This document shows positions 1,741-43,918 of a DNA stretch of 46,132 bases, piece after piece. Each line of letters starts with the position of its first letter. Within the stretch, counting starts at the first letter, position 1. The position numbers and the translations under genes were made by a program. This DNA comes from an uncultured Burkholderiales bacterium (GTDB taxonomy: Bacteria; Pseudomonadota; Gammaproteobacteria; Burkholderiales; SHXO01): NCBI GenBank assembly GCA_964570955.1, contig CAZNBS010000005.1, forward strand, positions 1-46,132, read 5' to 3'. The notes beneath the pieces were generated by a model. The model was not told where the DNA came from and searched no databases. It saw only the letters and a program-made list of their open reading frames with translations.

Positions 1741-2967
1741 ATGAAACTCGGAAAGATCGTTGCGGGATCACTCGCCGTCCTTGCCGTGGCGGGCGCCGCC
1801 GGCTGGCTCAGCCTCGACAAGGAGACGCGCGGCCTGCTGGCGACGCTGCCGACCAACCGCGATCTGCTGTTCTGGAGCCAGCCGCAGCGCGATGCCGCGT
1901 TTCGCGCGCTCGATCGCCTGCCGGTGCTGGCGAAGGCACGCGTGGTGCCGGCCAGCGGCGACCCGCTGCCGCTGCCGTCGGGTCCGTCGCTGAAGCTGCC
2001 GCTCGACGTGGACGCCTACATGGCCGGCCAGCGCAGTGCGGCGCTGCTCGTACTGCACGACGGCAAGCTGCGCCTCGAGCGCTACGGCCTCGACTTCGAC
2101 GCGCACGGACGCTGGACGAGCTTCTCGGTGGCCAAGTCGATCACCTCCACGCTGGTGGGCGCCGCCCTTCGCGACGGCTTCATCCGCAGCATGGACGACA
2201 AGGTCAGCGACTACATCCCCGACATGAAGGGCTCGGCCTACGACGACGTCAGTATCCGCCAGTTGCTGACGATGACCTCGGGTGTGCGATGGAACGAGGA
2301 CTACGCCGACCCGAACTCCGACGTGGCCCGGTTCAACAACCACGAGCCCGAGGAGGGCGTCGACGCGCTGGTGAGCTACCTGCGCCGGTTGCCGCGCGAC
2401 GTGCCGGCTGGCACACGCTGGCACTACAGCACCGGGGAGACCAACCTGGTCGGCATCCTGATCGGCAACGCGACGAAAAGGCCGCTGTCGGAGTACCTGT
2501 CCGAGAAGATCTGGAAGCCGGCCGGCATGGAGCAGCAGGCCACCTGGATTCTCAGCCGCACCGGCAAGGAGATCAGCGGGTGCTGCATCCAGGCCGCGAC
2601 GCGCGACTTCGCGCGCTTCGGCCTCTTCATCCTGAACGGCGCCCGGGTCGACGGCCAGAGCATCGTGCCCGAGGGCTGGCTGGCCGAAGCCACGACCGGG
2701 CGCACCGCCATCGGCGTGCCCGATCGGGGCTACGGCTACCAGTGGTGGACCTACGGCGACGGAAGTTTTTCCGCGCGCGGCATCTTTGGCCAGGGCATCT
2801 TCATCGACCCCAGGCGCAGGATCGTGATCGCCTCCAGCGCCAACTGGGGTGGCGGTGCGCGTGACCCTGTCGCGAGCGAGGCGCGCGAGGCGTTCTACCG
2901 CGCCGTGCAGAAGGCGGTGGACGACGAGGCGGCGGCGAGCCGGGAGAACGGGCAGGCGCGACAATGA
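1741..2967 (+). CDS. serine hydrolase, beta-lactamase/PBP4* family, N-terminal membrane anchor
   Basis: Hydrophobic N-terminus (IVAGSLAVLAVAGAAGW). S-x-x-K active-site motif in FSVAKSITSTLVG. Overall class C beta-lactamase/6-aminohexanoate-dimer-hydrolase-like layout. Confidence 0.8.
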   Translation: MKLGKIVAGSLAVLAVAGAAGWLSLDKETRGLLATLPTNRDLLFWSQPQRDAAFRALDRLPVLAKARVVPASGDPLPLPSGPSLKLPLDVDAYMAGQRSAALLVLHDGKLRLERYGLDFDAHGRWTSFSVAKSITSTLVGAALRDGFIRSMDDKVSDYIPDMKGSAYDDVSIRQLLTMTSGVRWNEDYADPNSDVARFNNHEPEEGVDALVSYLRRLPRDVPAGTRWHYSTGETNLVGILIGNATKRPLSEYLSEKIWKPAGMEQQATWILSRTGKEISGCCIQAATRDFARFGLFILNGARVDGQSIVPEGWLAEATTGRTAIGVPDRGYGYQWWTYGDGSFSARGIFGQGIFIDPRRRIVIASSANWGGGARDPVASEAREAFYRAVQKAVDDEAAASRENGQARQ

Positions 2968-3067
2968 CCGAACCTTGGCGTTGCGCCGTCTTCTTCGCTG
3001 GCCGGGGATACGCGCGCACCCCGAACCGTCGGGCCCGGAAGCGAGGCACGATAGCGGGCGACTGGAC

Positions 3068-3244
3068 ATGACACGACAAGACCGGCGACTCGCGCGCCAT
3101 CTCGCCATCGCCGTGGCATTGAAGCTGGCCGTGCTGGCCGCCCTGTGGTGGGCGTTCGTCCGCGACGAGCGTGTCAGCGTCGATGCGGCGGCCACCGCCG
3201 CCCACCTGAGCGCTCAACCGTCCCGAACCGGAGAAACACCGTGA
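3068..3244 (+). CDS. cydP: small membrane protein preceding cydA (CydP-like)
   Basis: 58-aa ORF MTRQDRRLARHLAIAVALKLAVLAALWWAFV... with one TM helix. Its TGA (3242-3244) overlaps the GTG start of cydA (GTGA). Position and architecture match the CydP small subunit found in betaproteobacterial cyd operons. Confidence 0.45.
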   Translation: MTRQDRRLARHLAIAVALKLAVLAALWWAFVRDERVSVDAAATAAHLSAQPSRTGETP

Positions 3245-4815
3245 TCCCGGAACACCTGGTCGACCTGTCACGGCTTCAGTTCGCCGCGACCGCGATGTAC
3301 CACTTCCTGTTCGTGCCGCTTACCCTCGGGATGGTCTGGCTGCTGGTCATCATGGAAAGCGTCTACGTGATGACCGGCAAGATCGTCTGGAAGGACATGA
3401 CCCGCTTCTGGGGCAAGTTGTTCGGGATCAACTTCGCGCTCGGCGTGACCACCGGCATCACGCTGGAGTTCCAGTTCGGCACCAATTGGGCGTACTACTC
3501 GCACTACGTCGGGGACATCTTCGGCGCGCCACTGGCCATCGAGGGGCTGATGGCCTTCTTCCTCGAGAGCACCTTCATCGGCCTGTTCTTCTTCGGCTGG
3601 GACCGGCTCACGAAGACCCAGCACTTGATGGTGACGACCTTGATGGCCGTCGGCACCAACCTGAGTGCACTCTGGATCCTGATCGCCAACGGGTGGATGC
3701 AGAACCCGGTCGGCGCCGAATTCAACTGGCAGACGATGCGCATGGAGCTGACGGACTTCTGGGCCGTGGTCTTCAACCCCGATGCGCAGGCCAAGTTCGT
3801 GCACACGGTCTCGGCGGGCTACGTGACCGGCGCGATGTTCGTACTCTCGATCTCCGCCTGGTACCTGCTGAAGGGACGCGACGTGGAGTTCGCGAAGCGC
3901 AGCTTCCGCGTCGCCGCCGCGTTCGGCCTGGCCAGCGTGCTCAGCGTGATCGTGCTCGGCGACGAGTCGGGGTACACGGTCGGCGAGGCGCAGCAGACGA
4001 AGATGGCCGCGCTCGAGGCGATGTGGGAGACCGAGCCCGCGCCGGCCGGCCTGAAGCTGGTCGCTGGCATCGACGAGGCCAACCAGCGCAACACCTGGGA
4101 GGTCGAAATCCCGTGGCTGATGGGGCTGATCGGCACCCGCTCGATCAGCCGGCAGATTCCCGGCATTCACGAGATCAAGGCCAGGAACCGCGAGCGCATC
4201 GTCAACGGCATCACCGCGGTGGTCGCGCTCGAGGCGCTGCGCAAGCACCCCGATGACCCCGTGGCGCGGCAGACGCTGCGGGCCACGCAGGGCGACCTCG
4301 GCTTCGGCCTGCTGCTGAAGAAGTACACCGCCGACGTGCGCCAGGTCACGCCCGAGATGATCCGCAAGGCCGTCGACGACACCGTGCCGCGCGTGACGCC
4401 GATGTTCTGGACTTTCCGCATCATGGTCGGGCTGGGATTCGCGATGCTGCTGCTTTTCGGGCTTGCGTTCTGGAGCACGCTGCGCAGCGACTGCAACGCG
4501 CGACCCTGGCTGCTGCGCTGGGCGCTCTGGATGTTGCCGGCGCCGTGGATCGCCTGCGAACTCGGCTGGTTCGTCGCCGAGTACGGCCGGCAGCCCTGGA
4601 CGATCTACGGCGTGCTTCCTACGCACCTGAGCGTTTCGACGCTGAGCGTCGAGAGCCTGTACGGTTCGCTCGCCGGCTTCGTGGGCTTCTACACGCTGTT
4701 GCTGATCGTCGAGATCTACCTGATGGTGAAGTTCGCGCGCCAGGGGCCCGGCAGTCTGGGCACCGGCCGCTACGAGCGCGAAGTCGCGCACCGCGCCGCT
4801 GCGGCGCACGCCTGA
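3241..4815 (+). CDS. cydA: cytochrome bd ubiquinol oxidase subunit I
   Basis: Near-identical blocks to E. coli CydA: LSRLQFAxTAMYHFLFVPLTLG, GKLFGINFALGVxTGxTxEFQFGTNW, EGLMAFFLESTF, GWMQNP, AEYGRQPW. Long Q-loop type. GTG start at 3241 gives the canonical N-terminus. Confidence 0.95.
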   Translation: MIPEHLVDLSRLQFAATAMYHFLFVPLTLGMVWLLVIMESVYVMTGKIVWKDMTRFWGKLFGINFALGVTTGITLEFQFGTNWAYYSHYVGDIFGAPLAIEGLMAFFLESTFIGLFFFGWDRLTKTQHLMVTTLMAVGTNLSALWILIANGWMQNPVGAEFNWQTMRMELTDFWAVVFNPDAQAKFVHTVSAGYVTGAMFVLSISAWYLLKGRDVEFAKRSFRVAAAFGLASVLSVIVLGDESGYTVGEAQQTKMAALEAMWETEPAPAGLKLVAGIDEANQRNTWEVEIPWLMGLIGTRSISRQIPGIHEIKARNRERIVNGITAVVALEALRKHPDDPVARQTLRATQGDLGFGLLLKKYTADVRQVTPEMIRKAVDDTVPRVTPMFWTFRIMVGLGFAMLLLFGLAFWSTLRSDCNARPWLLRWALWMLPAPWIACELGWFVAEYGRQPWTIYGVLPTHLSVSTLSVESLYGSLAGFVGFYTLLLIVEIYLMVKFARQGPGSLGTGRYEREVAHRAAAAHA

Positions 4816-4830
4816 CGGAGGAAACAGGTC

Positions 4831-5973
4831 ATGATCGACTATCCGACCCTGAAGGTCGTCTGGTGGCTGCTGGTCGGCGTGCTGCTGGTCGGCTTCGCGA
4901 TCATGGATGGCCATGACATGGGCGTGGGCACGCTGCTGCCCTTCGTCGGCAAGGGCGACGACGAGCGTCGCGTTGTCATCAACACCGTAGGGCCGCACTG
5001 GGACGGCAACCAGGTGTGGTTCATCACCGGAGGCGGCGCGATCTTCGCCGCCTGGCCGCTGGTCTACGCCACTGCGTTCAGCGGCTTCTACTGGGCGATG
5101 CTCGCAGTGCTGTGGGCGCTGTTCTTCCGGCCGGTGGGGTTCGATTATCGCAGCAAGGTCCACGCCCCCGCCTGGCGCAGCGCCTGGGACTGGGGCCTGT
5201 TCGTCGGCGGCGCCGTGCCGCCGCTGATCTTCGGCGTGGCCTTCGGCAACCTGTTGCAGGGTGTGCCCTTCGGCTTCGACGAGTATCTCGTCTCCACCTA
5301 TACCGGCAGCTTCTGGCAATTGCTGAACCCCTTCGCATTGCTCACTGGTGTGGTGAGCAGTGCGATGATCACGATGCACGGCGGCACCTATCTGGCGCAT
5401 CGCACCGAAGGCGCGATCCAGCAGCGCGCCGTGCACGGCGCCGCCGGCGGGGCGTTCGTGATGGTGCTGTCCTTCATCGCTGCCGGGCTCTGGCTGCGAT
5501 TCGGTCCCATCGAGGGCTACGTCATCACCTCGGCGGTCGATCCCGGCGCGATGGCCGATCCGCTGGCCAAGACGGTTGCGCGCAGCGCGGACGCCTGGTG
5601 GTTGAACTACGGCACGCAGCCGCTGCTGTGGCTGTTGCCGGCGCTGGGCATCGGGGGAGCGCTGCTGGCCGCGGGGCTGGTGGGCAGGGGGCGCACGCTG
5701 TCGGCGTTCGTCGCGTCGTCGCTGGCGATCGTGGGCGTCATCGGTACGGCCGGGGCCGCTATGTTCCCGTTCGTGATGCCGTCCTCGACAATGCCGAACG
5801 CGAGCCTGACGGTCTGGGACGGCGTCTCCAGTCATCTGACGTTGGGGCTGATGTTCTGGGCGACGCTGATTTTCATGCCGCTGATCGTCCTGTACACCTC
5901 GTGGGCCTACCGCGTGATGCGCGGCAAGGTGACCGTCGCGCAGATTCGCGCCAACGACCACACCGCTTACTGA
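4831..5973 (+). CDS. cydB: cytochrome bd ubiquinol oxidase subunit II
   Basis: MIDYPTLKVVWWLLVGVLLVGFAIMDGHDMGVG N-terminus and 8-9 hydrophobic segments. GGAGG RBS 8 nt upstream. Immediately follows cydA. Confidence 0.95.
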   Translation: MIDYPTLKVVWWLLVGVLLVGFAIMDGHDMGVGTLLPFVGKGDDERRVVINTVGPHWDGNQVWFITGGGAIFAAWPLVYATAFSGFYWAMLAVLWALFFRPVGFDYRSKVHAPAWRSAWDWGLFVGGAVPPLIFGVAFGNLLQGVPFGFDEYLVSTYTGSFWQLLNPFALLTGVVSSAMITMHGGTYLAHRTEGAIQQRAVHGAAGGAFVMVLSFIAAGLWLRFGPIEGYVITSAVDPGAMADPLAKTVARSADAWWLNYGTQPLLWLLPALGIGGALLAAGLVGRGRTLSAFVASSLAIVGVIGTAGAAMFPFVMPSSTMPNASLTVWDGVSSHLTLGLMFWATLIFMPLIVLYTSWAYRVMRGKVTVAQIRANDHTAY

Positions 5974-5985
5974 AGGAGCACGCCG

Positions 5986-6117
5986 ATGTGGTACTTCGCC
6001 TGGATGCTGGGTGTCGGCTTCGCGGTGCTGCTGGCGATCCTCAATGCGATGTGGGGAGAGAACGAGGCAGCCCGCCACGAGGCCGCCGAGCGCGGCGACG
6101 ATGGAGCCCGGCAGTGA
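5986..6117 (+). CDS. cydX: cytochrome bd oxidase small subunit CydX
   Basis: 43-aa ORF absent from the track (below the size cut-off): MWYFAWMLGVGFAVLLAILNAMWGENEAARHEAAERGDDGARQ. The first 10 residues match E. coli CydX (MWYFAWILG...). Located 12 nt after the cydB stop. Confidence 0.85.
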   Translation: MWYFAWMLGVGFAVLLAILNAMWGENEAARHEAAERGDDGARQ

Positions 6118-6395
6118 GCACGACGACGCCAGCCGCGCCGTCGCGCACCCGGTTGCCCAGCCTTGTCGTCGCGCTGGCCATCATGGTCGGCGGCACGGCG
6201 TATCCGCCGCTGATGGCCGACAGTGCGGGCCAGGCCGACCACGGCCTGGCGATGGCGCTGTTCTGGGCAATGAGCGCCGGTTTCGTACGCGGTGTCGGAT
6301 TCGTGCCGCGAACAGCGGTGTGGTACTGGCTGTTCTCGGGCTGGGCCTGTGCCGCAGCACTGGTGCTCGCCGCCGCGCTGAAGTCGATGCATTGA
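6114..6395 (+). CDS. ybgE: cyd operon protein YbgE
   Basis: GTG 6114 overlaps the cydX TGA (GTGA). HGLAMALFWAMSAGFVRGVGFVPRTAVWYWLF aligns with E. coli YbgE HGLLLMWAVCAGVIHGVGFRPQKVLWQGIF. It is only the tail of the spurious 5016..6395 track ORF. Confidence 0.75.
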   Translation: MSTTTPAAPSRTRLPSLVVALAIMVGGTAYPPLMADSAGQADHGLAMALFWAMSAGFVRGVGFVPRTAVWYWLFSGWACAAALVLAAALKSMH

Positions 6396-6875: not shown

Positions 6876-7180
6876 ACGTCAAAGCCGAAGAGGGCAGCAG
6901 CCATCGCAGCGACGCTCCGTTTGAGCGGCACACGGCCCGTCACGACACGTGGTTCGAGCAACATGACGCGGCGCATGAGCCTTGCGACTGTTTGACGAGG
7001 ATCAGTGCTCCCGATAGTGGGGGGGGCGTCAGACTGTCTTTTTGATACGCTGTTTTTCCCGGGTGGAAAGGAGGTTCCATGTCAGATCAACCGCAGGGTT
7101 GCGCGCGGGTGACGGGTTCCGTGGTCGGCGGCCCGCCCGATGCGCAACCCGAACCCAGCCCAAGACAGGAGGCAACCAGG

Positions 7181-7786
7181 ATGACCGCACGTGTGGGGCA
7201 GAAAGCCCCCGACTTCAATGCTCCCGCCTACTACCGGGGCAAGTTCACCAACGTCAAGTTGTCGGACTTTGCCGGCAAGTGGGTGATGCTGTGCTTCTAT
7301 CCCGGCGATTTCACCTTCGTCTGAGCCACTGAAGTGTCCGCGGTCGCGGCAAGGTATCAGACGTTGCAGGATCTCGGAGTCGAAGTCGTCTCGGTCAGTG
7401 TGGACAGCCACTTCGTCCACAAGATGTGGGATGACCACGAACTGAGCAAGATGGTCAACGGCGGCGTGCCCTTCCACATGGCTGCCGACCAGGCGGGCAA
7501 TGTGGGGCGCGCCTACGGTGTCTGGGACGAGAGCCAGGGGATCGAGATGCGCGGTCGCTTCATCATCGACCCGGATGGCGTGATCCAGGCCATGGAGGTG
7601 CTCACCCCGCCGGTCGGACGCAAGTTCGCCGAGACCGTGCGCCAGGTACAGGCCTTTCAGGTGGTGCGTGCGTCGGGCGGCGCGGAAGCGACTCCCGCGG
7701 GTTGGGAGCCGGGCAAACCGACCCTCGAGCCGGGTCCCGATCTGGTGGGCAAGGTCTGGGAGGTCTGGAACCCGTCGATGGAGTGA
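7181..7786 (+). CDS. selenocysteine-containing peroxiredoxin (AhpC/Prx1 family); TGA 7322-7324 decoded as Sec
   Basis: Track ORFs 7079..7324 and 7334..7786 share one frame and are separated only by TGA. Read-through gives [23 protein letters not shown], the Prx active-site block FYPxDFTFVCPTE with TGA at the peroxidatic Cys. AGGAGG lies 8 nt before ATG 7181 ([12 protein letters not shown]). Total 201 codons, the normal Prx length. A SECIS hairpin follows. Confidence 0.8.
7335..7351 (+). promoter_or_regulatory. bacterial SECIS minihelix (fdhF type)
   Basis: UGUCCGCGGUCGCGGCA pairs as U-A, G-C, bulged U, then the 4-bp stem CCGC/GCGG closing a GGUC loop. This is isomorphic with the E. coli fdhF 17-nt minihelix GGUUGCAGGUCUGCACC (bulged U, GGUC loop). 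It starts 10 nt after the UGA, versus 11 nt in fdhF. Confidence 0.65.
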
Positions 7787-7799
7787 GCTGATCGGGGAT

Positions 7800-8211
7800 G
7801 TCCAGCCGCGGGCGTTCGGGATATCGGAGAACAACTCCGCGCCGCGCTCGCCCGCGGCGAACACCCACCTCGTTGTCCGAGAGCGCGATCCTGCCGTCGC
7901 AGCCGCACGCGGATGCGATTGTCACGACACAGGCCGGATTGAACCTGTCGTGGAAGAACTCTTTGGCGCGCGAGAACGCGCGCCTGGAGCGGCCGGCGCG
8001 TCGCGGCCGGCAGCAGTGCCGCCTCGACCACCTGCGGTCCGGCGCTCTTGCCGCCGAATCCGCCTCCGATGCAGGGCGTGATGACGCGGACGTCGTCCTG
8101 CTTTATCCGCAGGCCTTGCGCGCTCAGGTCGGGAGCCGGAAAGGGGGGCTGCGTCGAGGTCCAGATGACCTCGAGCGCAACCGGTTGCCCGTTCAAGGTG
8201 AAGCGGATCAC
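7800..8211 (-). pseudogene. decayed CoxS/CoxL-type (xanthine dehydrogenase family) molybdoenzyme remnant
   Basis: ORF 7657..8211 begins MIRFTLNGQPVALEV (typical 2Fe-2S small-subunit start). It runs directly into VIWTSTQPPF...VRVITPCIGGGFGGKS...RRPLQ (the mid-large-subunit WTSTQ and GGGFGxK blocks). The continuation (CGCDGRIALSDNEV) is in another frame (7602..7925). This indicates an internal deletion plus a frameshift. The lower boundary is approximate. Confidence 0.45.
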
Positions 8212-14875: not shown

Positions 14876-16210
14876 ATGACGCGAACGATCGTCGAGCCCG
14901 AACGACGCACGCCAGTCCTGGGTGAACCGCAAGTCCTGGTCGTGGGTGGCGGCGCGGCCGGAATCGCTGCCGCGTGTGCGGCGGCCCGCAGCGGGGTCGA
15001 GACGCTTCTGATCGAGCGCTTCGGATTCCTTGGCGGTACCCTGACCGCCGTCACGCTGGGCGGTTTCTGCGGCACGCATGCAATCGTCGACGACTCGCGA
15101 CTGGCGCGCGTCGTCGGCGGGTTGTACCTGGACCTGGAGGATCGCCTTCGCAAGCGACACGCGGTATCCGATCCGGTCCGCCACGGTCGCATCTTGGGGG
15201 TGCCTTACGACTCGGTCTGCCTGAAGCTGGTCGCTGACGAGATGGTTGCCGGACAAGGGGTGACGACGCTCCTGCACACGCATGTCGTCGGCGTGCGTCG
15301 CGAAGGCAACCGGGTCGACGCAGTCATCGTCGAGAACAAGGGCGGAAGGGCGGCGATCTGCCCGCGCGTCGTCGTCGATTGCTCGGGCGACGGAGACGTC
15401 GCGGCGTTCGCCGGCGCCGACTACGCGCTCGGCGATGATGGACGAACGCAGGCGGGTTCCACGATGTTTCGCCTCGCCGGAGTCGACACGACAATTGCCG
15501 GCAGTCTGACGCGCCCGCAGATTCGCGAGCTGCTCGAGCGTGCCGTGAGCGAGGGCTATCCGCTTCCGAGGACGGCCACGGGCGTGCACGTCAACCCGAT
15601 CGAAGGCGTCGTGCACCTGAATGTCACGCGACTCGGGCGCCCCGACGGCAGCGCCTACGACCTCACGAACCCGCAAGACCTCACCGAGGCCGAGCGTGTC
15701 GGACGGGCGCAGGCGTTTGTCTACGAGGAGGTGTTCCGGCGCTACATCCCGGGTTTCGAGAGAGCGCGCATCGTCGACATCGGCGCGACGGTAGGAATTC
15801 GCGAAACGCGGCTGGTCAAGGGCGAAGAGGTCTTGACGGAAGAAGCAGTGAGGAACTGCGTCAAGCCGAAAAGCCGGATCGCCTGCACGTCCTGGCCGCT
15901 GGAGACGCACCAGGGAGGCAGAGGGACGACCTGGGAGTTCCTGCCCGACGGAGACTACTACGGCATTCCGTACGGTTGCCTGGTCGTGAGTGGCCTGGAG
16001 AACGTCTTCGTTGCTGGCAGGAATCTGTCTGCGACGCACGCGGCGCAAGCGTCGGCGCGAGTGGCGGGGCCGTGCTTCGCGATGGGCGAGGCGGCCGGCG
16101 TTGCGGCCGCGATGGCTGCCCGGGGCAATGTTCGCAGCACGGACGTCCCGATCGGCGAACTGCAGCGCGTTCTGGAGCGGCAGGGGGCGATCCTGACACC
16201 AGCGCTATGA
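14876..16210 (+). CDS. FAD-dependent oxidoreductase (FAD_oxidored/GIDA-like family)
   Basis: VLVVGGGAAGIAAACAAARSGVETLLIERFGFLGGTLT dinucleotide-binding fold. It is the C-terminal third of the artefactual 12614..16210 track ORF. ATG 14876 gives 444 aa. Confidence 0.8.
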   Translation: MTRTIVEPERRTPVLGEPQVLVVGGGAAGIAAACAAARSGVETLLIERFGFLGGTLTAVTLGGFCGTHAIVDDSRLARVVGGLYLDLEDRLRKRHAVSDPVRHGRILGVPYDSVCLKLVADEMVAGQGVTTLLHTHVVGVRREGNRVDAVIVENKGGRAAICPRVVVDCSGDGDVAAFAGADYALGDDGRTQAGSTMFRLAGVDTTIAGSLTRPQIRELLERAVSEGYPLPRTATGVHVNPIEGVVHLNVTRLGRPDGSAYDLTNPQDLTEAERVGRAQAFVYEEVFRRYIPGFERARIVDIGATVGIRETRLVKGEEVLTEEAVRNCVKPKSRIACTSWPLETHQGGRGTTWEFLPDGDYYGIPYGCLVVSGLENVFVAGRNLSATHAAQASARVAGPCFAMGEAAGVAAAMAARGNVRSTDVPIGELQRVLERQGAILTPAL

Positions 16211-16330: not shown

Positions 16331-16696
16331 TTACGCCACGCTCCCGAACCCCAGGTCCACCGAACCCGCCGGTGGCTCGAGCCCGGCAAGCCGGCAGCCC
16401 TGCGCGATCGGTCCGCCGGGCAGCAGGCTGTAGAGGTACTTGATGCCGCCCTTATAGTGGAACTTTTCGTCGAGGGCGTCGCTCAGGTCGCGCAGGTGGA
16501 GCGGCTCGTCCTCGTGGCGGGCGAAGAACTCCTGAAGCCCGCGCACGACGGCCCAGTGATCGTCGCCGAGGATCAGGTGCTCCTGTTGGGCGATCTGCTC
16601 TGCTCTCGCGCGTGTCCAGTCGGGCGGCGCGTGCGGAAAGCCCGGCGCGGCGGGCTCTCTCTGGACGGGCTGGAACGCGTCCTGAATGCTCGTCAT
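16331..16696 (-). CDS. DsrC/TusE family sulfur-relay-like protein, atypical C-terminal arm
   Basis: 121 aa. W-x-x-x-x-A-x-x-IA, HWAVVRGLQEFF, KGGIKYLYSLLPGGPIAQGCRLAGLEPPAGSV parallels TusE/DsrC (...YLYxLFPxGPxKQxxKIAGLPKPxxC-V/I). Start is ATG 16694-16696 with an AGGTGA RBS. Confidence 0.8.
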   Translation of the reverse strand: MTSIQDAFQPVQREPAAPGFPHAPPDWTRARAEQIAQQEHLILGDDHWAVVRGLQEFFARHEDEPLHLRDLSDALDEKFHYKGGIKYLYSLLPGGPIAQGCRLAGLEPPAGSVDLGFGSVA

Positions 16697-17239: not shown

Positions 17240-18157
17240 TCAGCGCCCCGGTCCTCCGACTGGAGACGACGGCGGCACGTGACCCCAGTCGCTGATCTGC
17301 GAATATGTCTTGATCTCCCAGGCGTCGTCGTCGATGACGATGCCGCCCCAGCCAAACTCGAGCCCGAATCCAGAGGGCGTTTGCACGTAGAACGAGAGCA
17401 TCCGGTCGTTCGGGTGGCGTCCGATACCGTGAATGAACGCCACGTCGGCCTTCGCGCAACGGTCGTGGGCCAGTCCGACGTCGTCCATGTTCTCGACCTG
17501 CACCATGATGTGGTGGATGCGCTTCTCGCTCGGCATGTATGCGGTCGCCAGCGAATGATGTCGCCCGGTGGCCGCGTGCAGGAACGTCGCGTCGATGACC
17601 ATACCAGGGGCCATCTCCATGCGGATGTAGTCGCTGAGCCTCAGCCCGAGCGTGTTCTTGTAGAACTGCACAGTGCGCTGCGCCCCCGGATCGCGCGCCA
17701 CTGCCAGCACATGCCCGACACCGAGGCGGCCAGTATTGAAGTTGCCGAGGAGCACTTTCGAGCGGAATGCGCCAGACATCGGAGCACGATGCGCGCCCAC
17801 GTAGAACTCGTGTTTCAGGCCGTTTGGATCTTCGCAGGCGAACACGCGCTCGACCCGACGGCTGTCTGCGAGCTCGCGGCCCCCATCCGTGACGACGACG
17901 CCCGCCGCTCGCAGCCGCTCGACGTACGCGTCCAGCTCGTCGTGGGTGTCGAGTTCCCATCCGGCGGCGAGGAAGTCGTCCTCGCCGGTCTTTGTGATGA
18001 GCATGCGCTGCTCGTGGTCGTCCATGCGCAGCGCGAGTGACTTGCCTGGCTCGCGACGTCCTGCCTGAAGTCCGATGACATCGATCGCGAAGCGTTCCCA
18101 CGCGTCGAGATCGCTCGCCCCAATTACGAAGTACCCGATATTGGACAATTCAGCCAC
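17240..18157 (-). CDS. type I extradiol ring-cleavage dioxygenase (BphC/HsaC-like, VOC superfamily)
   Basis: Two-domain VOC layout. IGYFVIGASDLDAWERF, GHVLAV, HHIMVQV, and GIGRHPNDRMLSFYVQTPSGFGLEFG (the conserved GRHxNDxMxSFY...E block). GTG start with GGGAG RBS. Confidence 0.9.
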   Translation of the reverse strand: MAELSNIGYFVIGASDLDAWERFAIDVIGLQAGRREPGKSLALRMDDHEQRMLITKTGEDDFLAAGWELDTHDELDAYVERLRAAGVVVTDGGRELADSRRVERVFACEDPNGLKHEFYVGAHRAPMSGAFRSKVLLGNFNTGRLGVGHVLAVARDPGAQRTVQFYKNTLGLRLSDYIRMEMAPGMVIDATFLHAATGRHHSLATAYMPSEKRIHHIMVQVENMDDVGLAHDRCAKADVAFIHGIGRHPNDRMLSFYVQTPSGFGLEFGWGGIVIDDDAWEIKTYSQISDWGHVPPSSPVGGPGR

Positions 18158-18232
18158 GATCTACTCCCAGAGTTGATTGGTAGTGCGTTGTATGCATGCC
18201 GGCCGTCGATCGTCGGTCGCACGTGCGCCAGG

Positions 18233-20150
<1,918 letters not shown>

Positions 20151-20165
20151 GTCCTCTCCGACTGA

Positions 20166-21080
20166 TCAGGCCACGACAGGTTCGAGCGTCAACCTTCCGC
20201 CGAGAATCTCCTCGGCGAACATTTCTGCGGTGCGCGCGGCTGCCGCGGTCATGATGTCGAGGTTGCCGGCATACGTGGGCAGGTAATCGCCCAGCCCTTC
20301 GACTTCCAGATAGATCGAGACGCGATCACCGTCGATCACCGGGCCGTTGACGAGCCGGTAGCCGGGAACGTATTCCTGTACGTCGGCGATCATCGCGTGG
20401 ACCGATTCCTCGATCGACGCCGCTCGCGGCTTGCCGTGCACGAGGCAGTGGACGGTGTCGCGCATGATCATCGGTGGTTCCGCGGGATTGACGATGATGA
20501 TCGCCTTGCCCTTTCCGGCGCCGCCGACATGCTCGATCGCGGCCGCGGTCGTGCGGGTGAACTCGTCGATGTTCCTGCGTGTGCCGGGTCCCGCAGAGCG
20601 CGAGGAGACGGTGGCGACGATTTCGGCATAATGAACCGGCTGCACGCGACTGATGGCGTGAACGATCGGGATCGTTGCCTGTCCACCGCAGGTAACCATG
20701 TTCACGTTCATCTCACGATTGCCGAGGTGTCCGGCCAGGTTCACCGGCGGTACGCAGTACGGGCCAACAGCCGCCGGCGTCAGGTCGATCATCAGGACGC
20801 CCGCGGCGTTGAGCTTGCGGCTGTTCTCCGCATGCGCGTAGGCGCTGGTCGCGTCGAACGCGATCTGGATGGCGTCGGCCGCAATGTGCGGAAGCAGCCC
20901 ATCGACGCCGTCCGCGGTGGTCGCGAGTCCGAGTTCTCGCGCCTTCGCCAGACCGTCGGAGTCCGGATCGATACCGACCATCCAGATGGGTTCGAGCAGA
21001 TGGCTGCGTCGCAGTTTTGCAAGCAGATCGGTACCGATGTTCCCGGGGCCGATCAGCGCGCACCTGACCTTCTGCATCAT
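20166..21080 (-). CDS. acetaldehyde dehydrogenase (acetylating) (DmpF/BphJ/HsaG family)
   Basis: [16 protein letters not shown] Rossmann start and [14 protein letters not shown] catalytic-Cys block. Start at one of the tandem ATGs at 21075-21080. Confidence 0.95.
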
Positions 21081-21093
21081 CCGATCTCGCCGT

Positions 21094-21894
21094 TCAGCCA
21101 AAACACACCGAGCAGCGGCCCAGGCCGCCGATCTCCATCTGCAGAAAGTCGCCCTTCTGCACGTTCACCATTCCCGACAGGGCACCGGACAGGATGACCT
21201 CGCCGGACTCGAGCGGAACACCAAAACGGCCGAGCGTATTGGCGAGCCAGGCGACCGCATTGACGGGGCTGCCCATGCTTGCCGCACCCGCGCCAAGCCC
21301 GATGATCTGCCCGTTGCGTTCCATCACCATTCCGCAACTGTAGAAGTCGAATTCGTGCGGCGCGACCATGCGGTCGCCGAGTACGAACACGCCGCAACTG
21401 GCGTTGTCGGCGACGGTGTCCTGGATCCGGATCTTCCAGTCGCGAATGCGCGAATCGACAATCTCGAAGCAGGGGAGCACGCCTTCGGTGGCAGCAAGCA
21501 CCTCGGCGGCCGTCACGCCCGGACCGCGCAGCGTCCGCTTAAGTACGAAGGCGATCTCGGCCTCCGCCTTCGGCTGGATGAGGCGGTCGATCGCGACGAC
21601 GCTCCCGCGCCCGTAGGCCATGTCGTCGAGCAGGACACCGAAGTCTGGCTGCTCGACGCCGAGCATCATCATCACGGCGTGACTGGTCACGCCGATCTTC
21701 TTGCCGATCACCCGGCTGCCGTGGTCGCACCGCAACTCGATCAGTCGGCGCTGTACACGATAGGCATCCTCGATCGTGAGATCCTGGTTCCGCTCCGTCA
21801 ACGGTTCGAGGGTCCGACGCTGCATGAGCGCGTCGAACAACTCCCGGCTGTGCGCGAGGATAGCGTCGTCGATCATCATCGATTGGCGGGCCAT
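21094..21894 (-). CDS. 2-oxopent-4-enoate (2-hydroxypenta-2,4-dienoate) hydratase (MhpD/BphH/HsaE family)
   Basis: [17 protein letters not shown]...GKKIGVTS...[10 protein letters not shown]...VADNAS, the typical FAH-fold hydratase pattern. Start is ATG 21892-21894, 6 nt after the upstream stop. Confidence 0.9.
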
Positions 21895-21899
21895 TCGAA

Positions 21900-23123
21900 T
21901 CAGTCCGGGTAGCGCGGCAGCTCGTACATGCCGGGAGGCAGTCCCTGCCCAAGGTGGAATCCGCCGAGCATGCCGGCGAAGTCGTCCGCGTTCTGCGTGG
22001 TGTGATTGGCCGCGACGAGCATGTCGCGCAGAACGCGTTGCATCGGATTGTTGCGATAGATGCCGCGCGCAGAGTTCGCTTTGTGCAGCAGCAGCACCGC
22101 CTGCTCGCACTCGCGGCCGACGCGTGCGATGTCAAGGATGTGCTCGATGCGCAATGCCTCCGGCACCTTCTCGCGGCGCTCGACGATGGGCCGGGTCTCC
22201 GCCATGATCTGCAGCAACCGGGCGCGTGACGACCTGACCAGCGCGATCGCGTTGCCCAGGCGGTCCTTGACATACGGGCTGAGCGCGACCGACCCGGGAA
22301 CCATGATTCCCTGCCGCTTCCGGGTATGCTCGATGAAGTGGTCGATCATCGCCTGCGCGAAGCCGACGATTGCCGACGACACCGATGCGAAGAACACCTG
22401 GTTGAACGGATACCAGTACTCGACCGCCATGTCCGGCCGAGGCTCGTACTCGACGATGCTGTGGGAGCGATAGTCCGGGACAAAGGTGTCGGGCTTGAGC
22501 TTCACGCTCTTGCTGCCCGTGCCGCACAGTCCCATCGTGAACCAGTCGTCGATCTGCTCGTAGTCGTTGCGCGAAACGAGGAATGAACGATGGTCGACGA
22601 AGCGGGTTTTCTCGTCGAAGACGCGCGCGCCGATGTACGCCCCGCCTCTTGCGTGGTCGGTGCCGCTGGAGGTGCCCCATGTGCCATTGAGGACCCAGCC
22701 GCCGTCGACCTTCCTGCAGGTGCCGAATGGCGCATACGACGACGCAACCAGTGTCTCGCTGTCGCGCGACCAGATGTCGGCGCAGGCGCGCTCCGGCATT
22801 TGCCCGAACTCCCACTGGTGTACGCCGAGGATCATCAGGTTCCAGCCGCTCGAACAGCATCCGCGGCCGACCTCCATCAGTACGCGCATGAAGGTGACCG
22901 GATCCATCTGGTAGCCGCCCCATTTGCGCGGCTGCATGATCCGGAAGAATCCGGCTTGCCTGAAGGCGTCGATGACCTCGTCGTCCACGCGCCGGGCCTG
23001 CTCGATCGCATCGGCGCGTTCGCGAAGCATCGGCACCAGAGCGCGCGCGCGCGCGACGAGCTCGTCGGCGGAGGGAATCTCCGCGTCTGCGGCAGCGGCC
23101 GCCCGGGTATCAATACTCTCCAT
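21900..23123 (-). CDS. acyl-CoA-dehydrogenase-fold flavin-dependent monooxygenase, oxygenase component (HsaA/TesA1/C2-HpaH group)
   Basis: 407 aa. LVPMLRERADAIEQARRVDDEVIDAFRQAGFFRIMQPRKWGGYQ opening, middle beta-domain (GGWVLNGTWGTSSG), C-terminal helical domain. GGAGGAGG RBS. Paired with a flavin reductase directly upstream. Confidence 0.85.
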   Translation of the reverse strand: MESIDTRAAAAADAEIPSADELVARARALVPMLRERADAIEQARRVDDEVIDAFRQAGFFRIMQPRKWGGYQMDPVTFMRVLMEVGRGCCSSGWNLMILGVHQWEFGQMPERACADIWSRDSETLVASSYAPFGTCRKVDGGWVLNGTWGTSSGTDHARGGAYIGARVFDEKTRFVDHRSFLVSRNDYEQIDDWFTMGLCGTGSKSVKLKPDTFVPDYRSHSIVEYEPRPDMAVEYWYPFNQVFFASVSSAIVGFAQAMIDHFIEHTRKRQGIMVPGSVALSPYVKDRLGNAIALVRSSRARLLQIMAETRPIVERREKVPEALRIEHILDIARVGRECEQAVLLLHKANSARGIYRNNPMQRVLRDMLVAANHTTQNADDFAGMLGGFHLGQGLPPGMYELPRYPD

Positions 23124-23216
23124 CTGATCCTCCTCCCACTGTCTGCAACTTCATGTTCGAAACGGGACAACCTGTCGCGCAGGTCGCGCTCGCGTACGAG
23201 GCGCCAATCTGGTACC

Positions 23217-23798
23217 TCACCAGATCCACTCGATCGGTTGCTCGGTGCTGCACCTCAACGGGGCAAGCTGACGGAAGCAGCCGTCGAGATAGATGAGCCC
23301 TTCGCGGGCGCCACCACCGGAGTCATCGTCGGAACGATGAACTGCGATGACGTCGCCGAGGAACATCGAATGCGTGCTGGCAGGAATCGTCTCCGTTACG
23401 TCACACACCAGTGTCACGCACGCGCCCTCGAGAGCAGGCGCGCCCGCGAGCGTTGACCAGCGACCCTCTGCGAAGCGCGTTTCGCCCATCACGCCCGGCT
23501 CCATGCCGGCAAAACGTCTCGCGAGTCCGATCGCTTCGCCGGGCAACACATTGACGCTTAGCCGACGGCTGGCAACGATCGCGTCGTGCGTGCCGGTCTT
23601 CCGGTTCAGGCAGACGAGCAAGCGTGGTGGATCGGCCGTGATCGAGCAGACGGCGGTCGCCGTCAGGCCAGAACGCCTGCCGGGCGTCCCGGTGGCCACG
23701 ATGCAGACCGCGCCTGCAAGCGACCTCATCGCAGCGCGAAAGGTGCTCACATCGACCGGCGCTGCCTTCGCTGCGGCGATTGCCGTCATCGTTTCCAT
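23217..23798 (-). CDS. NAD(P)H-flavin reductase component (HsaB/HpaC-like, flavin_reduct domain)
   Basis: FRAAMRSLAGAVCIVAT...GLTATAVCSITADPPRLLVCLN...HSMFLGDV, the canonical flavin reductase motifs. Start is ATG 23796-23798 downstream of the sigma54 promoter. The longer track ORF would start upstream of that promoter. Confidence 0.85.
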   Translation of the reverse strand: METMTAIAAAKAAPVDVSTFRAAMRSLAGAVCIVATGTPGRRSGLTATAVCSITADPPRLLVCLNRKTGTHDAIVASRRLSVNVLPGEAIGLARRFAGMEPGVMGETRFAEGRWSTLAGAPALEGACVTLVCDVTETIPASTHSMFLGDVIAVHRSDDDSGGGAREGLIYLDGCFRQLAPLRCSTEQPIEWIW

Positions 23799-23829
23799 GC
23801 GTACTTTGCTCTCCACCCAAATGGCTGAC

Positions 23830-23845
23830 GCAAAACTCATGCCAG
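23830..23845 (-). promoter_or_regulatory. sigma54 (-24/-12) promoter of the monooxygenase/meta-cleavage operon
   Basis: The minus strand reads TGGCATGAGTTTTGCG, i.e. TGGCAT-N5-TTGC with exact GG-N10-GC spacing. It sits ~30 nt upstream of the flavin reductase ATG, opposite a divergent sigma54 activator gene. Confidence 0.7.
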
Positions 23846-24049
23846 AGAAGTCTCGCCACTCCGCAGCCTGCCGTAGGCACATCACATGGTGCGACGCAAC
23901 CTAGAGCTAGAGTGAAGGGAAATCGAGCGGGATTGCTGCGATTGCATATGGCATGTGGTGGGTGATGGAGAACAGGCAAGACCGTTCTGCAGCCCTTGCG
24001 GTTGAAGAAAAATATTCTTACCGTTCAGAAAAATCCTTATGGTGAGGCG

Positions 24050-25894
24050 ATGAGCAATACCGCTATCGAGATCACTCAGTCCGCCGGAGCCAGGCGGCCA
24101 ACTCATGCCGAGCGGGGGGCGTCACTTGCGTTCAGCGATCTGGACCCCCGGGCCCTGACCGAACGGTTCCACTTCGACCTCAAGGCAGGGTGCATCTGGC
24201 TGGATACCCAGCGAGTGCTGATCCTGCAGGCCGAGTGGTTCGTCGAGCTTCGGCGCGAGCTGGTTGTGACGCTGGGGGTCCGGAAGGCGCGTGGATTGAT
24301 CACCCGGCTGGGTTACGCCGCGGGCTGCCGTGATGGGCAACTCGCGATCAAACTGCATGGGAGCCGTCCGCTTCGTGAGATCGTCGACTCCGGGACCCTG
24401 CTGCATGCGTTGCAGGGAACGGTCGCCGTGGTGCCGCTCGTCTACGAACTCGACCTGGACGCGCACCACTGTCACATGGAGTTCGCCTGGAAGAACTCGA
24501 TCGAGGATCACGCCCAGCTGAGGACCGCGAAACAGACAGGCGAACCGACCTGCTGGATGGAGATCGGCTATGCGTCAGGTTTCCTGACCACGTGCCTCGG
24601 ATCGTCCGTCGTCGTGCGTGAGACCGAATGCGCGGCGCTGGGCCACTCAGGTTGTCGATGCGTTGCCAGATTCGAGGACGAATGGGACGATCCGTCCGGG
24701 GACGTCGAGTATCTTCAGGCGTGGTCGGCGGCGGCGCCACCGGACGTCGTCGTTGCAGGGCAGCCCGAGACCAACGTCTGCGATGAGGGATCCGGCTGCG
24801 CTGAAGCAGCCGGGAACGGGCCGACATCCGTGGAGCCGAGCGTGCTGGGTCGCTCGGCTGCGTTCAACGGCGTTGCGCAGAAGATCGAGCGGGTGGCGGG
24901 AACGGAGGCCACCGTCCTGTTACTCGGCGAGAGCGGGGTTGGCAAGAGTCTGTTCGCGCGTGAGATCCATCGGCGTGGCAAGCGGGCCGACGGTCCCTTC
25001 ATCGAACTGAATTGCGCATCGCTCCCCGAGACGCTGCTCGAGTCCGAGTTGTTCGGTGTTGAGCGCGGCGCCTACACCGGAGCGAATGCGAGCCGCGCTG
25101 GGCGCTTCGAACGCGCGGCTGGCGGAACGCTGTTTCTCGACGAGATCGGCACGCTCGGATTCACCGCGCAGGGGAAGCTGCTGCGGGTGTTGCAATCGGG
25201 CGAATTCGAACGCCTGGGTGGCGGCAAGACACTGCGCGGCAACGTGCGACTGGTGGCCGCGACCAACGAAGACCTGCGCAGATCGGTCAACGAAGGGCGC
25301 TTCCGTCTGGACCTCTTCTATCGTCTGAATCTCTTTCCGATCGAAGTGCCTCCGCTGCGCGATCGACGCGACGACCTGCCCTTGCTCATCGATCACTTCC
25401 TCGAGCGCTACCGGGAGCGATATGGCAGGCGCCATCGGATGTCCATCAGCCCGCGTGCTTATCGCACGCTGCTCTCGCATTCGTGGCCCGGCAACGTGCG
25501 GGAACTCGAAAATGTGCTCGAGCGCGCGGTGATCCTGGTAAACGATGGCGAAACCCTCGATCTGCATCACCTGTTCACAGACCCGACCGAGTTTCCCGCC
25601 GAGGAGGGACTGCTGATCGACGACACAGGGCGCCTTGTGGGGACGCGCCAGAGCTCTCGCGCTGATGCGGATAACGCGGAGGACACGGTTGCCGGTGCCG
25701 CATCCGTTCAGGACTGGGCGCGACGTGCGCTGGACGACTGCGACGCCCTGGGTCTGTCGGGGTTGGAGCGCAAGCTCGTGATGGCCGCGTTGCGCGAGGC
25801 TGGAGGAGACGTCCGGATGGCCGCACGCAAACTCGGCCTGACCCGCGCCCAGATCGACTACCGATTGAAGAAGTGGGGCGAGACGCCCGCCTGA
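24050..25894 (+). CDS. sigma54-dependent transcriptional activator, XylR/DmpR/HbpR subclass (XylR_N + V4R sensor, AAA+, HTH_8)
   Basis: Aromatic-effector-type A domain ([15 protein letters not shown]..., V4R with [11 protein letters not shown]). Walker [22 protein letters not shown] sigma54-contact loop, FLDEIG, C-terminal Fis-type [23 protein letters not shown]. Confidence 0.9.
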
Positions 25895-34327: not shown

Positions 34328-36221
34328 TAGTCCGAAGTTCCGACCCAGCTGAGCCGCTTGCAGGCACCTGATCCGAGTCAGATCAATGAGATAGACGTAA
34401 TTGTCGGCTGAATTTTGAATATCACGTGGACATGCATATCCACCTCCTCCCCAACCGAGGCTCGCCGCCCACCGTTTTACTGCGCGAGTCGTATCGCGAG
34501 GGATCGAAGGTGCGCAAGCGAACGCTGGCCAATCTCTCGAGCTTGGCGGCTGCGCAGATCGAAGCCATGCGCGCCGTGCTGGCTGGCAAGGCCGTGCAGC
34601 CGATCGCGCAAACGTTGGAGATCACCGGCTCGCGCCCGCACGGCCACGTGCAGGCGGTGCACGCCGCGATGCGTCGGCTGGAGGTGGCCTCGTTGCTGGA
34701 CACCAAGCCCTCGCCCGAGCGCGACCGGGTGCTCGCCATGATCGCCGCGCGCATCGTCGCGCCTTCACCGAAACTGGCCATCACACGCTGGTGGCACACG
34801 ACGACGCTGGCCGAGGAGTTCGGCGTCGTCGACGCCGACGAGAGCGACCTGTACGCGGCGATGGACTGGCTGCTTGAGCGCCAGGAGCGAATTGAGAACA
34901 AGCTCGCCGCGCGCCACCTCGCCGAAGGTGGCCTCGTGCTCTACGACCTGTCGTCGAGCTACTTCGAGGGCACGACCTGCCCGCCGGCGCGCCTGGGCCA
35001 CAGCCGCGACGGGCGCCGCGGGATGTTGCAGGTCAACTACGGCTTGCTCACCGATGCGCGCGGCTGCCCGGTGGCCGTATCGGTGCACGAGGGCAACGTC
35101 GCCGACAGTGCGACGTTCCTGCCGGCGGTGCAGCGGCTGCGCGAGCGCTTCGGCGTGGGTGAGCTCATGATGGTGGGCGATCGCGGCATGATCGGACACA
35201 AGGCGATCGAGGAGTTGCGCAGCCACCAGGGCATCGGCTGGATCACGGCGCTCAAGAGCGGCTCGATCCGCGCGCTCATCGAGCAGGGGCAGCTGCAGCT
35301 CGGGCTGTTCGACGAGCGCAACCTCATCGAGCTCGCCTCGCCCGAGTACCCGGGCGAGCGGTTCGTGGCATGCCGCAATCCGCAACTGGCGAAGCTTCGT
35401 GCGTTCAAGCGCGAGGATCTGCTGCGCGCTACCGAGAAGAATCTGCAGGCGATCGAAGATCGCGTCCAGGCGGGCCGGCTCGAGGGGGCCGATGCGATCG
35501 GCCTGCGCGTGGGTAAGGTCGTGAACCAGTACAAGGTCGCCAAGCACTTCGAACTGGAGATCGAAGACCGAAGCTTCAGCTTCGCGCGCAAGGAGCAGGT
35601 GATCGCTGCCGAAGCCGCGCTCGATGGAATCTACATCATCTGCACCTCGGTGGGCATCGAGCGTATGGATGCGCCCGAGTGCGTACGCAGCTGCAAGGCG
35701 CTGGCCAACGTGGAGCGGGCGTTCCGGTCGCTCAAGACGGTGGACCTGAAGGTGCGTCCCATCCACCACCGCACGGAAAATCGCGTGCGCGCGCACATCT
35801 TCCTGTGCATGCTCGCCTACTACGTCGAGTGGCACATGCGCGAGGCGTGGCGCGAGTTGATGTTCGCCGACACCGAGCAGCACGCAAAAGCGAGCCGCGA
35901 TCCGGTGGCGCCGGCCAGGTGCTCAGCCAAGGCGCTGGCGCAGGCGGCGAGCCACGCGCTCGACGACGGCACGCCCGTGCACAGCTTCGCCACGCTGATG
36001 GCCGAGATGGCCACCGTCGTGCGCAACACCTGCCGCACGCCCCGCGCCGAGGCCGAGGCGCCGACCTTCGAGATCGTCACGACCGCCAACGCCAAGCAGA
36101 AGCGCGCCCTCGAGTTGATTCAGAACATCGAGCCGTAGACAGAACGCGGAACCTCGATCTCGCGCCATGTCATTGGCGCACAAGGCAAAACCCGCTACCG
36201 GGGCGCTGGAACTTCAGCTTA
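34328..36221 (+). mobile_element. IS1634-family (IS4-like) insertion sequence; boundaries approximate
   Basis: Single transposase ORF flanked by imperfect inverted ends sharing a GAAGTTCC core. Left end is TAGTCCGAAGTTCCGACCC at 34328. The right end reverse-complements to TAAGCTGAAGTTCCAGCGCC and ends at 36221. No convincing target-site duplication was seen. Confidence 0.5.
34426..36138 (+). CDS. IS1634 family DDE transposase
   Basis: The N-terminus LLRESYREGSKVRKRTLANLSSL matches the IS1634 hallmark (ESYREGGKVRQRxLxNLG). DDE-type core (LVLYDLSSSYFEG, MVGDRGM, IICTS). C-terminal YxxRxxIExxFRxLK block (ERAFRSLKTVDLKVRPIHH). An alternative ATG lies at 34432. Confidence 0.85.
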   Translation: MDMHIHLLPNRGSPPTVLLRESYREGSKVRKRTLANLSSLAAAQIEAMRAVLAGKAVQPIAQTLEITGSRPHGHVQAVHAAMRRLEVASLLDTKPSPERDRVLAMIAARIVAPSPKLAITRWWHTTTLAEEFGVVDADESDLYAAMDWLLERQERIENKLAARHLAEGGLVLYDLSSSYFEGTTCPPARLGHSRDGRRGMLQVNYGLLTDARGCPVAVSVHEGNVADSATFLPAVQRLRERFGVGELMMVGDRGMIGHKAIEELRSHQGIGWITALKSGSIRALIEQGQLQLGLFDERNLIELASPEYPGERFVACRNPQLAKLRAFKREDLLRATEKNLQAIEDRVQAGRLEGADAIGLRVGKVVNQYKVAKHFELEIEDRSFSFARKEQVIAAEAALDGIYIICTSVGIERMDAPECVRSCKALANVERAFRSLKTVDLKVRPIHHRTENRVRAHIFLCMLAYYVEWHMREAWRELMFADTEQHAKASRDPVAPARCSAKALAQAASHALDDGTPVHSFATLMAEMATVVRNTCRTPRAEAEAPTFEIVTTANAKQKRALELIQNIEP

Positions 36222-43852: not shown

Positions 43853-43918
43853 CCGGATCGGGCGACGATGCAGAGCGGACAGCAGGCGGCGACGACGACG
43901 AGGAGGAGGAGAAGATTC

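Follow-up and report, generated by a model that had tools for sequence, protein, structure and literature searches.

The 46,132-nt stretch of contig CAZNBS010000005.1 analyzed here (the 46-kb window, whose positions serve as coordinates throughout) contains a peroxiredoxin gene, prxU, that is interrupted by an in-frame TGA. Sequence evidence indicates that positions 7079 to 7786 are very probably a single prxU gene encoding a selenocysteine (Sec)-containing peroxiredoxin (Prx) of the PrxU kind, in which the UGA would be recoded through an fdhF-type selenocysteine insertion sequence (SECIS). An earlier sequence-only reading of this DNA had proposed a Sec-dependent peroxidase of this kind. That proposal is now borne out by the identity of the codon in related loci, by covariation within the SECIS hairpin, by the low ratio of nonsynonymous to synonymous substitution (dN/dS) past the TGA, and by a match to a curated PrxU model.

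According to the open reading frame (ORF) list and its translation, positions 7079 to 7786 form one frame of 236 codons whose sole internal stop is the TGA at 7322 to 7324. The full coding sequence on the forward strand thus holds 235 codons, with Sec as codon 82, followed by the TGA stop at 7784 to 7786. As the sequence-only reading had noted, the ORFs 7079..7324 and 7334..7786 share one frame and are broken only by that internal TGA, and it had also placed the TGA at the peroxidatic Cys. The latter point was confirmed by a phmmer alignment to the Amphibacillus AhpC of structure 1WE0 (E = 1.8e-44), in which the peroxidatic Cys of FSFVCPTEL lies opposite the TGA. The catalytic motif P75-x-x-x-T79-x-x-U82 (PGDFTFV-UGA) spans 7301 to 7324 (+), and the conserved active-site Arg, Arg158 (7550 to 7552, +), lies in MRGRFIID, opposite DRGTFIID of 1WE0. 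P75, T79, U82, and R158 all align with 1WE0 and are invariant in alignment A2, showing that the PxxxTxxC(U) motif and the Arg of peroxiredoxins are present. When the stop was read as Cys, Pfam returned AhpC-TSA (2e-39), Redoxin, and the C-terminal domain 1-cysPrx_C. Where typical 2-Cys Prx carry their C-terminal resolving Cys, the product has Thr205 (7691 to 7693, +), with EATPAGW in place of the EVCPAKW of 1WE0. The canonical resolving Cys is lost, as the sequence-only reading had it, and because of this substitution the product does not strictly belong to the typical 2-Cys Prx. Among 120 family matches, this position is mostly Thr or Ala, with Cys in the minority.

The read-through product matches the NCBIfam model NF040737 (peroxi_PrxU, thioredoxin-dependent peroxiredoxin) over residues 6 to 233 of 235 with 385.5 bits, where the cutoff is 270. 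This model is a curated equivalog of 233 positions that spans the N-terminal extension described below. The second-best model, AhpC TIGR03137, scored 195.7 bits, under its cutoff of 272. Public assemblies with an identical sequence (GCA_048499355.1, GCA_023383895.1, and others) call either 81 plus 150 residues or 47 plus 150 residues, and many 150-residue fragment entries stand among the closest database matches. The misannotation as two fragments that the sequence-only reading had anticipated is thus found in practice. Its description of such proteins as rare was overstated, given the curated NCBI model and more than 537 matching genome loci.

These loci were confirmed after species-representative genomes had been scanned with the last 150 residues of the product, and the best 80 were compared. 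They come from at least six phyla (Chloroflexota, Acidobacteriota, Pseudomonadota, Actinomycetota, NC10, and Spirochaetota), the Pseudomonadota among them including Thiobacillus, Thauera, Methyloversatilis, Ottowia, and Thiohalophilus. The codon carried by orthologues had been named beforehand as a check, and TGA was found at exactly the Sec codon in all 80 loci, between FYPGDFTFV and ATEVSAVA. Genuine Cys-type homologues also exist (P0001, P0010, P0034, P0054, and P0108). Against the closest relatives, whose product is 94% identical, dN/dS was 0.046 before the TGA and 0.061 after it, at dS of 0.45 to 0.6. This finding indicates that the part downstream of the TGA is translated and constrained. 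That purifying selection is so strong past the UGA in this lineage also argues, indirectly, for Sec decoding. Decay of the downstream sequence, which the sequence-only reading had listed as a refuting sign, was looked for and was not found. The identical downstream product is present on 22 contigs of separate samples.

The putative SECIS minihelix occupies 7335 to 7351 (+) and begins 10 nt past the UGA, within the coding sequence. It consists of a U-A pair, a G-C pair, a bulged U (U7337), a CCGC/GCGG stem, and a GGUC loop at 7342 to 7345. This segment (UGUCCGCGGUCGCGGCA) folds as ((.((((....)))))) at -6.2 kcal/mol, whereas the Escherichia coli fdhF minihelix (GGUUGCAGGUCUGCACC, a string that lies within fdhF in about 5,400 E. 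coli genomes) folds as (((.(((....)))))). Both are hairpins of 17 nt with a GGUC loop and a single U bulged out of the lower stem, and both lie inside the coding sequence just past the UGA. They differ in that the bulge of the window hairpin stands one position earlier in the predicted stem and in that the stem sequences are unrelated. The loop and the bulged U that the sequence-only reading likened to fdhF are present, as is the 1-nt shift that it described.

Covariation was tested in alignment A1 (80 sequences, gapless), whose columns 26 to 43 correspond to 7335 to 7352, by 500 column shuffles and by sliding the register. GCGGUCGC is invariant in A1, synonymous sites included. Pair 30-39, which joins a Ser wobble position to an Ala wobble position, is GC in 61 sequences, CG in 12, AU in 4, and UA in 2, with a single break; pair 27-42 is GC in 44, AU in 11, and GU in 1. 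None of the 500 shuffles reached the observed covariation score, and the score collapsed when the 3' partner was slid by one to three columns. Judged from these compensatory changes at synonymous sites, the SECIS hairpin is real. With such clean synonymous-site covariation, the PrxU family is well suited to training predictors of bacterial SECIS elements.

Two forms of the hairpin were distinguished by the sixth codon after the UGA. An Asp codon here (57 sequences) goes with an unbroken 7-bp stem. With an Ala codon (21 sequences, mostly from Proteobacteria and including the window), the stem has 4 bp, a bulged U, and a further 2 to 3 bp, as in fdhF, and the bulged-U register is kept in 19 to 21 of the 21 sequences, depending on the pair. 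Most family members outside the subgroup of the window thus differ from the fdhF-like form in having a continuous stem and no bulge. Since the two architectures track the sixth residue after Sec, protein sequence and RNA structure coevolve at that codon. A candidate lower helix (7312 to 7318 with 7331 to 7336, placing the UGA in a 12-nt loop) is 97.7% pairable across the 80 sequences, but hardly any compensatory change is seen in it, and its pairing conflicts with the base of the upper SECIS stem.

The single broken pair belongs to L077, an uncultured Chloroflexia metagenome-assembled genome (MAG) (contig_23449, approximately 2736 to 3450), which is the only degenerate copy. Its N-terminal Cys motif is out of frame, its catalytic motif reads FSPGDFTFS, and its SECIS wobble pair is A-C. 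These defects are either long-read indel errors or the marks of a real pseudogene.

Several observations weigh against Sec decoding in the window. Folded alone, 7322 to 7370 is unremarkable (z = +1.0 versus shuffles), and because of this the SECIS claim rests on the covariation. No relevant Rfam family was found at the gathering threshold in the whole window or at a permissive threshold in 7250 to 7450. The spacer between the UGA and the helix is 10 nt, against 11 nt in fdhF. The 46-kb window contains no selA, selB, selD, or tRNA-Sec, nor any tRNA gene at all. A tRNA-Sec gene was likewise absent from 60 related loci. Indirect support for Sec decoding, however, comes from 13 related loci, where sel genes lie directly downstream of prxU on the same strand (a selA-like ORF in 12 loci, a selB-like one in 7). 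One representative of each was confirmed (selA, TIGR00474, 4e-178; selB, TIGR00475, 2e-114). No other selenoprotein gene was found in the window, where the remaining same-frame TGA junctions are ordinary gene ends.

The split annotation and the lack of visible Sec machinery in the window would also fit a pseudogene, that is, an ordinary Cys peroxiredoxin struck by a nonsense mutation and decaying downstream of it, but this explanation is effectively refuted by the TGA shared across phyla, by dN/dS of 0.061 past the TGA at dS of 0.45 with the 150-codon downstream frame intact, by the identical downstream product in separate samples, and by the covarying SECIS.

A second explanation holds that the UGA is read as Trp or Cys, by a near-cognate tRNA or under a reassigned code, or that the two halves are made separately and assemble. 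Some database entries do give Trp at this site ("FVWATE"), and a GTG at 7334, 10 nt after the TGA, could start the second half. However, the "FVWATE" entries are the same TGA translated as Trp, and homologues show Cys, never a genomically encoded Trp, at the Sec site. The GTG is not a conserved start, since 16 of the 80 aligned sequences have GTA or GTC as that Val codon. A reassigned code is excluded because 22 of the 25 genes in the window, prxU included, end in TGA as a normal stop. Furthermore, a conserved, covarying hairpin of the SelB type would have no role under this explanation, and selA and selB are adjacent to prxU in relatives. This explanation is thus highly improbable, and Sec decoding of the UGA is the reading carried forward below.

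The sequence-only reading had started the gene at 7181. We found that the conserved frame opens at 7079 and that 7181 is an internal start. The upstream frame is open to an ATG in 79 of the 80 loci, and a Shine-Dalgarno sequence of the AAAGGAGG type lies 4 to 6 nt before that ATG in nearly all of them; in the window, the Shine-Dalgarno sequence for the long form is AAGGAGG at 7068 to 7074 (+). The resulting 34-residue extension has the consensus M-x-(D/E)-x-P-x-G-C-A-R-V-(T/S)-G, followed by a variable linker rich in Pro, Glu, Ser, and Thr. In the window, the N-terminal Cys peptide, M1 to G13, is encoded at 7079 to 7117 (+), with Cys8 at 7100 to 7102, and the peptide is present in 79 of the 80 loci. 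The linker (Pro/Glu/Ser-rich in the window) follows at 7118 to 7180 (+). A motif search found the Cys in 81 of 81 sequences (two of the matches being off-register) and the Arg in 79 of 81. The Cys8 codon is TGC in 47 cases and TGT in 34, the Arg uses all six of its codons, and the Ala and Gly use all four each. This free synonymous variation demonstrates that the motif is conserved as protein.

Recognition of the extension changes the Cys inventory of the product, which in full length is C8, C72, and U82. The sequence-only reading had counted a single further Cys, that of MLCFYP, and had concluded that no resolving Cys is present. The Cys of MLCFYP was correctly seen; it is Cys72 (7292 to 7294, +), in strand beta3, ten residues N-terminal to Sec. 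Cys8 was overlooked, and since the extension is conserved and carries this residue, the lack of a resolving Cys is not established. For both Cys8 and Cys72, conservation reaches at least 90% across the wider family and PrxU clade, Cys-type members included.

The internal start (7181 to 7183, +), which would give a short form of 201 codons, is conserved across relatives as well. Among 81 sequences, its codon is ATG in 71, GTG in 9, and ATC in 1. All nine Val cases are GTG, although GTG makes up 38% of the Val codons in those genes. A Shine-Dalgarno-like motif lies at -16 to -4 of this start in 78 of the 81 sequences, against a background of 7.4%, and a strong one (AGGAG or GGAGG) in 65 of 81, against 2%. 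In the window this is the AGGAGG at 7167 to 7172, inside the linker. The conservation of an internal Shine-Dalgarno sequence and start within a linker that is otherwise unconstrained suggests selection for internal initiation. Because two ribosome-binding sites and starts are conserved, at 7079 and at 7181, the gene probably yields two isoforms, although the odds in favor are modest: a long one that carries the Cys arm (about 25 kDa) and a short one that lacks it (about 22 kDa). The simplest history is that an ancestral short PrxU gained the N-terminal arm and kept its old ribosome-binding site within the new linker. No description of the Cys arm or of the dual starts was found in the searchable literature, although the NF040737 profile spans the extension.

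Only one genuine short form was found. In L094, a low-GC relative, stop codons lie upstream, the internal site is the only start, and Cys72 is kept. Two other relatives that had been called short, L092 and L093, carry an in-frame Cys extension. Both have U-P-T-E at the active site, and this ruled out a rule pairing Ala after Sec with the extension and Pro with short forms.

An AlphaFold2 model was made for P0034, a natural Cys-type long form 59% identical to the window product, from a 79-sequence alignment. The mean predicted local distance difference test score (pLDDT) was 87.5, exceeding 90 in the Prx core and falling below 50 in the linker (residues 20 to 35), which is predicted to be disordered. 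In Foldseek, the model matched typical 2-Cys Prx structures (AhpC, Prx2, Prx3, and Prx4) at a target-normalized template modeling (TM) score of about 0.9. The model and the Pfam matches to AhpC-TSA and 1-cysPrx_C both support a thioredoxin fold with a C-terminal arm of the Prx1 type.

The mechanism that we propose begins with SelB, which would decode the UGA at 7322 to 7324 as Sec, guided by the 17-nt hairpin 10 nt downstream in the coding sequence. By analogy with the family, Sec82 would then reduce peroxides with the help of Pro75, Thr79, and Arg158 and become a selenenic acid. Most likely, the oxidized Sec would form a selenenylsulfide with a thiol of the protein, and a reductant of the thioredoxin type would then reduce this bond; the name of the curated family implies that this reductant is thioredoxin. 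Cys8 of the long isoform, on its disordered tether of about 25 residues, is the best candidate for the resolving thiol, an assignment that we put forward as tentative. Cys8 is preferred because it is near-invariant, because its tether is constrained in length, and because it is retained in Cys-type members. The tether holds Cys8 at 27 to 32 residues from the internal start, though the linker sequence varies. Cys72 is the alternative resolving thiol. More speculative still is the proposal that the Cys8 arm, with its conserved peptide G-C-A-R-V/P-T-G, represents a new location for a resolving or relay thiol in a Prx1-type enzyme, one that may swing into the Sec site, with armed and unarmed subunits that possibly form mixed oligomers.

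Two results count against a role of Cys8 in catalysis. The N-terminal Cys peptide of the P0034 model (residues 1 to 20) has a pLDDT of only about 65 and two short beta bridges, and the existence of L094 as a genuine short form shows that Cys8 is not essential to the chemistry of the family. A rival to the Cys8 assignment is a "1-Sec" peroxidase in which an external thiol or thioredoxin reduces the selenenic acid directly, or in which Cys72 resolves it, the Cys peptide being otherwise employed (in regulation, partner docking, metal binding, or protection of Sec). We consider this rival to fall just short of an even chance. Selenenic acids react fast with external thiols, as in glutathione peroxidases. 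L094 keeps Cys72 while lacking the extension. Cys72 is specific to the PrxU clade, and Tyr replaces it in the classic 2-Cys relatives that have a C-terminal resolving Cys (P0046, P0079, P0083, and P0111). Finally, P0030 lost Sec (to Ser) and Cys72 (to Ile) together. Against this rival, Cys8 is near-invariant under protein-level selection across phyla and is kept in Cys-type members, and the 27- to 32-residue tether has the pattern of a reach-limited redox arm.

P0030 itself is a protein of 199 residues from a Joint Genome Institute (JGI) metagenome. With Ser at the Sec/Cys position and Ile for Cys72, it may be a nonperoxidatic paralogue.

Published lists of bacterial selenoprotein families with experimental verification include Sec-containing Prx with the TxxU motif and cite Söhling et al. 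2001 for it (PMC13188914 and PMC1794560). The novelty of the gene is low because it is an unannotated member of a family that is already curated and experimentally founded. A specialist would expect the base finding, and only the N-terminal Cys arm and the dual starts might be new. Together, these two features provide a testable hypothesis for the recycling of a Sec peroxiredoxin that lacks the canonical resolving Cys. Because the gene is split in annotation, antioxidant capacity and selenium use are undercounted in Burkholderiales, in Thiobacillus- and Thauera-type bacteria, and in Chloroflexota, Acidobacteriota, and NC10.

The window also contains cydA, cydB, cydX, ybgE, a DUF2202 gene, an IclR regulator, aromatic meta-cleavage genes, and transporters. 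Upstream of cydA, a CydP-like ORF of 58 residues (approximately 3068 to 3244, +) is called in a public assembly; cydX (YbgT_YccB, 43 residues) lies at 5986 to 6117 (+) and ybgE (93 residues) at 6114 to 6395 (+). The order of the operon is cydP-cydA-cydB-cydX-ybgE-DUF2202, followed by prxU. The position of prxU after the cyd operon, reported by the sequence-only reading, is correct for this genome and is not conserved, as different genes flank prxU in sister MAGs whose product is 94% identical. A functional link between cyd and prxU as a general feature was ruled out for that reason.

On the reverse strand, a relic of a molybdopterin-dependent dehydrogenase (MoCoBD_1, profile positions 60 to 123 of 244, E = 2e-11) was detected at 7980 to 8169. 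It lies within an ORF at 7657 to 8211 that is antisense to the 3' end of prxU and that is called as a 184-residue gene in some public assemblies. The presence of this relic beside prxU suggests a local rearrangement or insertion. In about seven related loci, a KatG-like catalase-peroxidase, recognized by sequence motif only, lies 2 to 3 kb from prxU (for example, at 5108 to 6448 in L037), which is consistent with an oxidative-stress gene neighborhood.

Farther along the window, an aromatic meta-cleavage cluster occupies 17240 to 25894 and 43868 to 45841. It includes a BphC-type extradiol dioxygenase, a hydrolase, a DmpG/DmpF-type aldolase and acetaldehyde dehydrogenase, and a sigma-54 activator of the XylR/DmpR type, and a phenol-hydroxylase-type flavin adenine dinucleotide (FAD) monooxygenase is found further along from it. 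Among the catabolic genes, a DDE transposase (Pfam DDE_Tnp_1) at 34426 to 36138 (+) is probably an insertion sequence. A DsrC-family gene (approximately 16331 to 16696, reverse strand), called in the public assembly, stands beside an FAD-dependent oxidoreductase (approximately 14876 to 16210, +).

The product of the window gene can be compared with several known systems. Like PrxU of Eubacterium (Peptoclostridium) acidaminophilum, it is an AhpC/TSA-fold protein with Sec at the peroxidatic position of a TxxU motif. Unlike that Gram-positive strict anaerobe, the window host, a Burkholderiales-type MAG, combines aerobic catabolism of aromatics with a cyd operon, and the residue after Sec is Ala (U-A-T-E) rather than the canonical Pro. 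The founding PrxU is reportedly about 203 residues long and as such would be a short form without the Cys arm. With typical 2-Cys Prx (Amphibacillus xylanus AhpC 1WE0, Salmonella AhpC, and human Prx2), the product shares the fold, the PxxxTxxC motif, the active-site Arg, and an arm of the 1-cysPrx_C type. It differs in having Sec for the peroxidatic Cys, Thr205 for the resolving Cys, and the additional conserved Cys72. Its N-terminal Cys extension lies outside every solved structure, as the alignments start at residues 36 to 41. In contrast to AhpC systems, an AhpF-like partner gene is not adjacent to prxU in the window. A resolving Cys N-terminal to the peroxidatic residue has a precedent in yeast Ahp1, of the Prx5 subfamily. 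In Ahp1, however, this Cys belongs to a folded domain of a protein of another subfamily and serves a peroxidatic Cys, whereas in the window product Cys8 is carried on a tether predicted to be disordered and would face a Sec.

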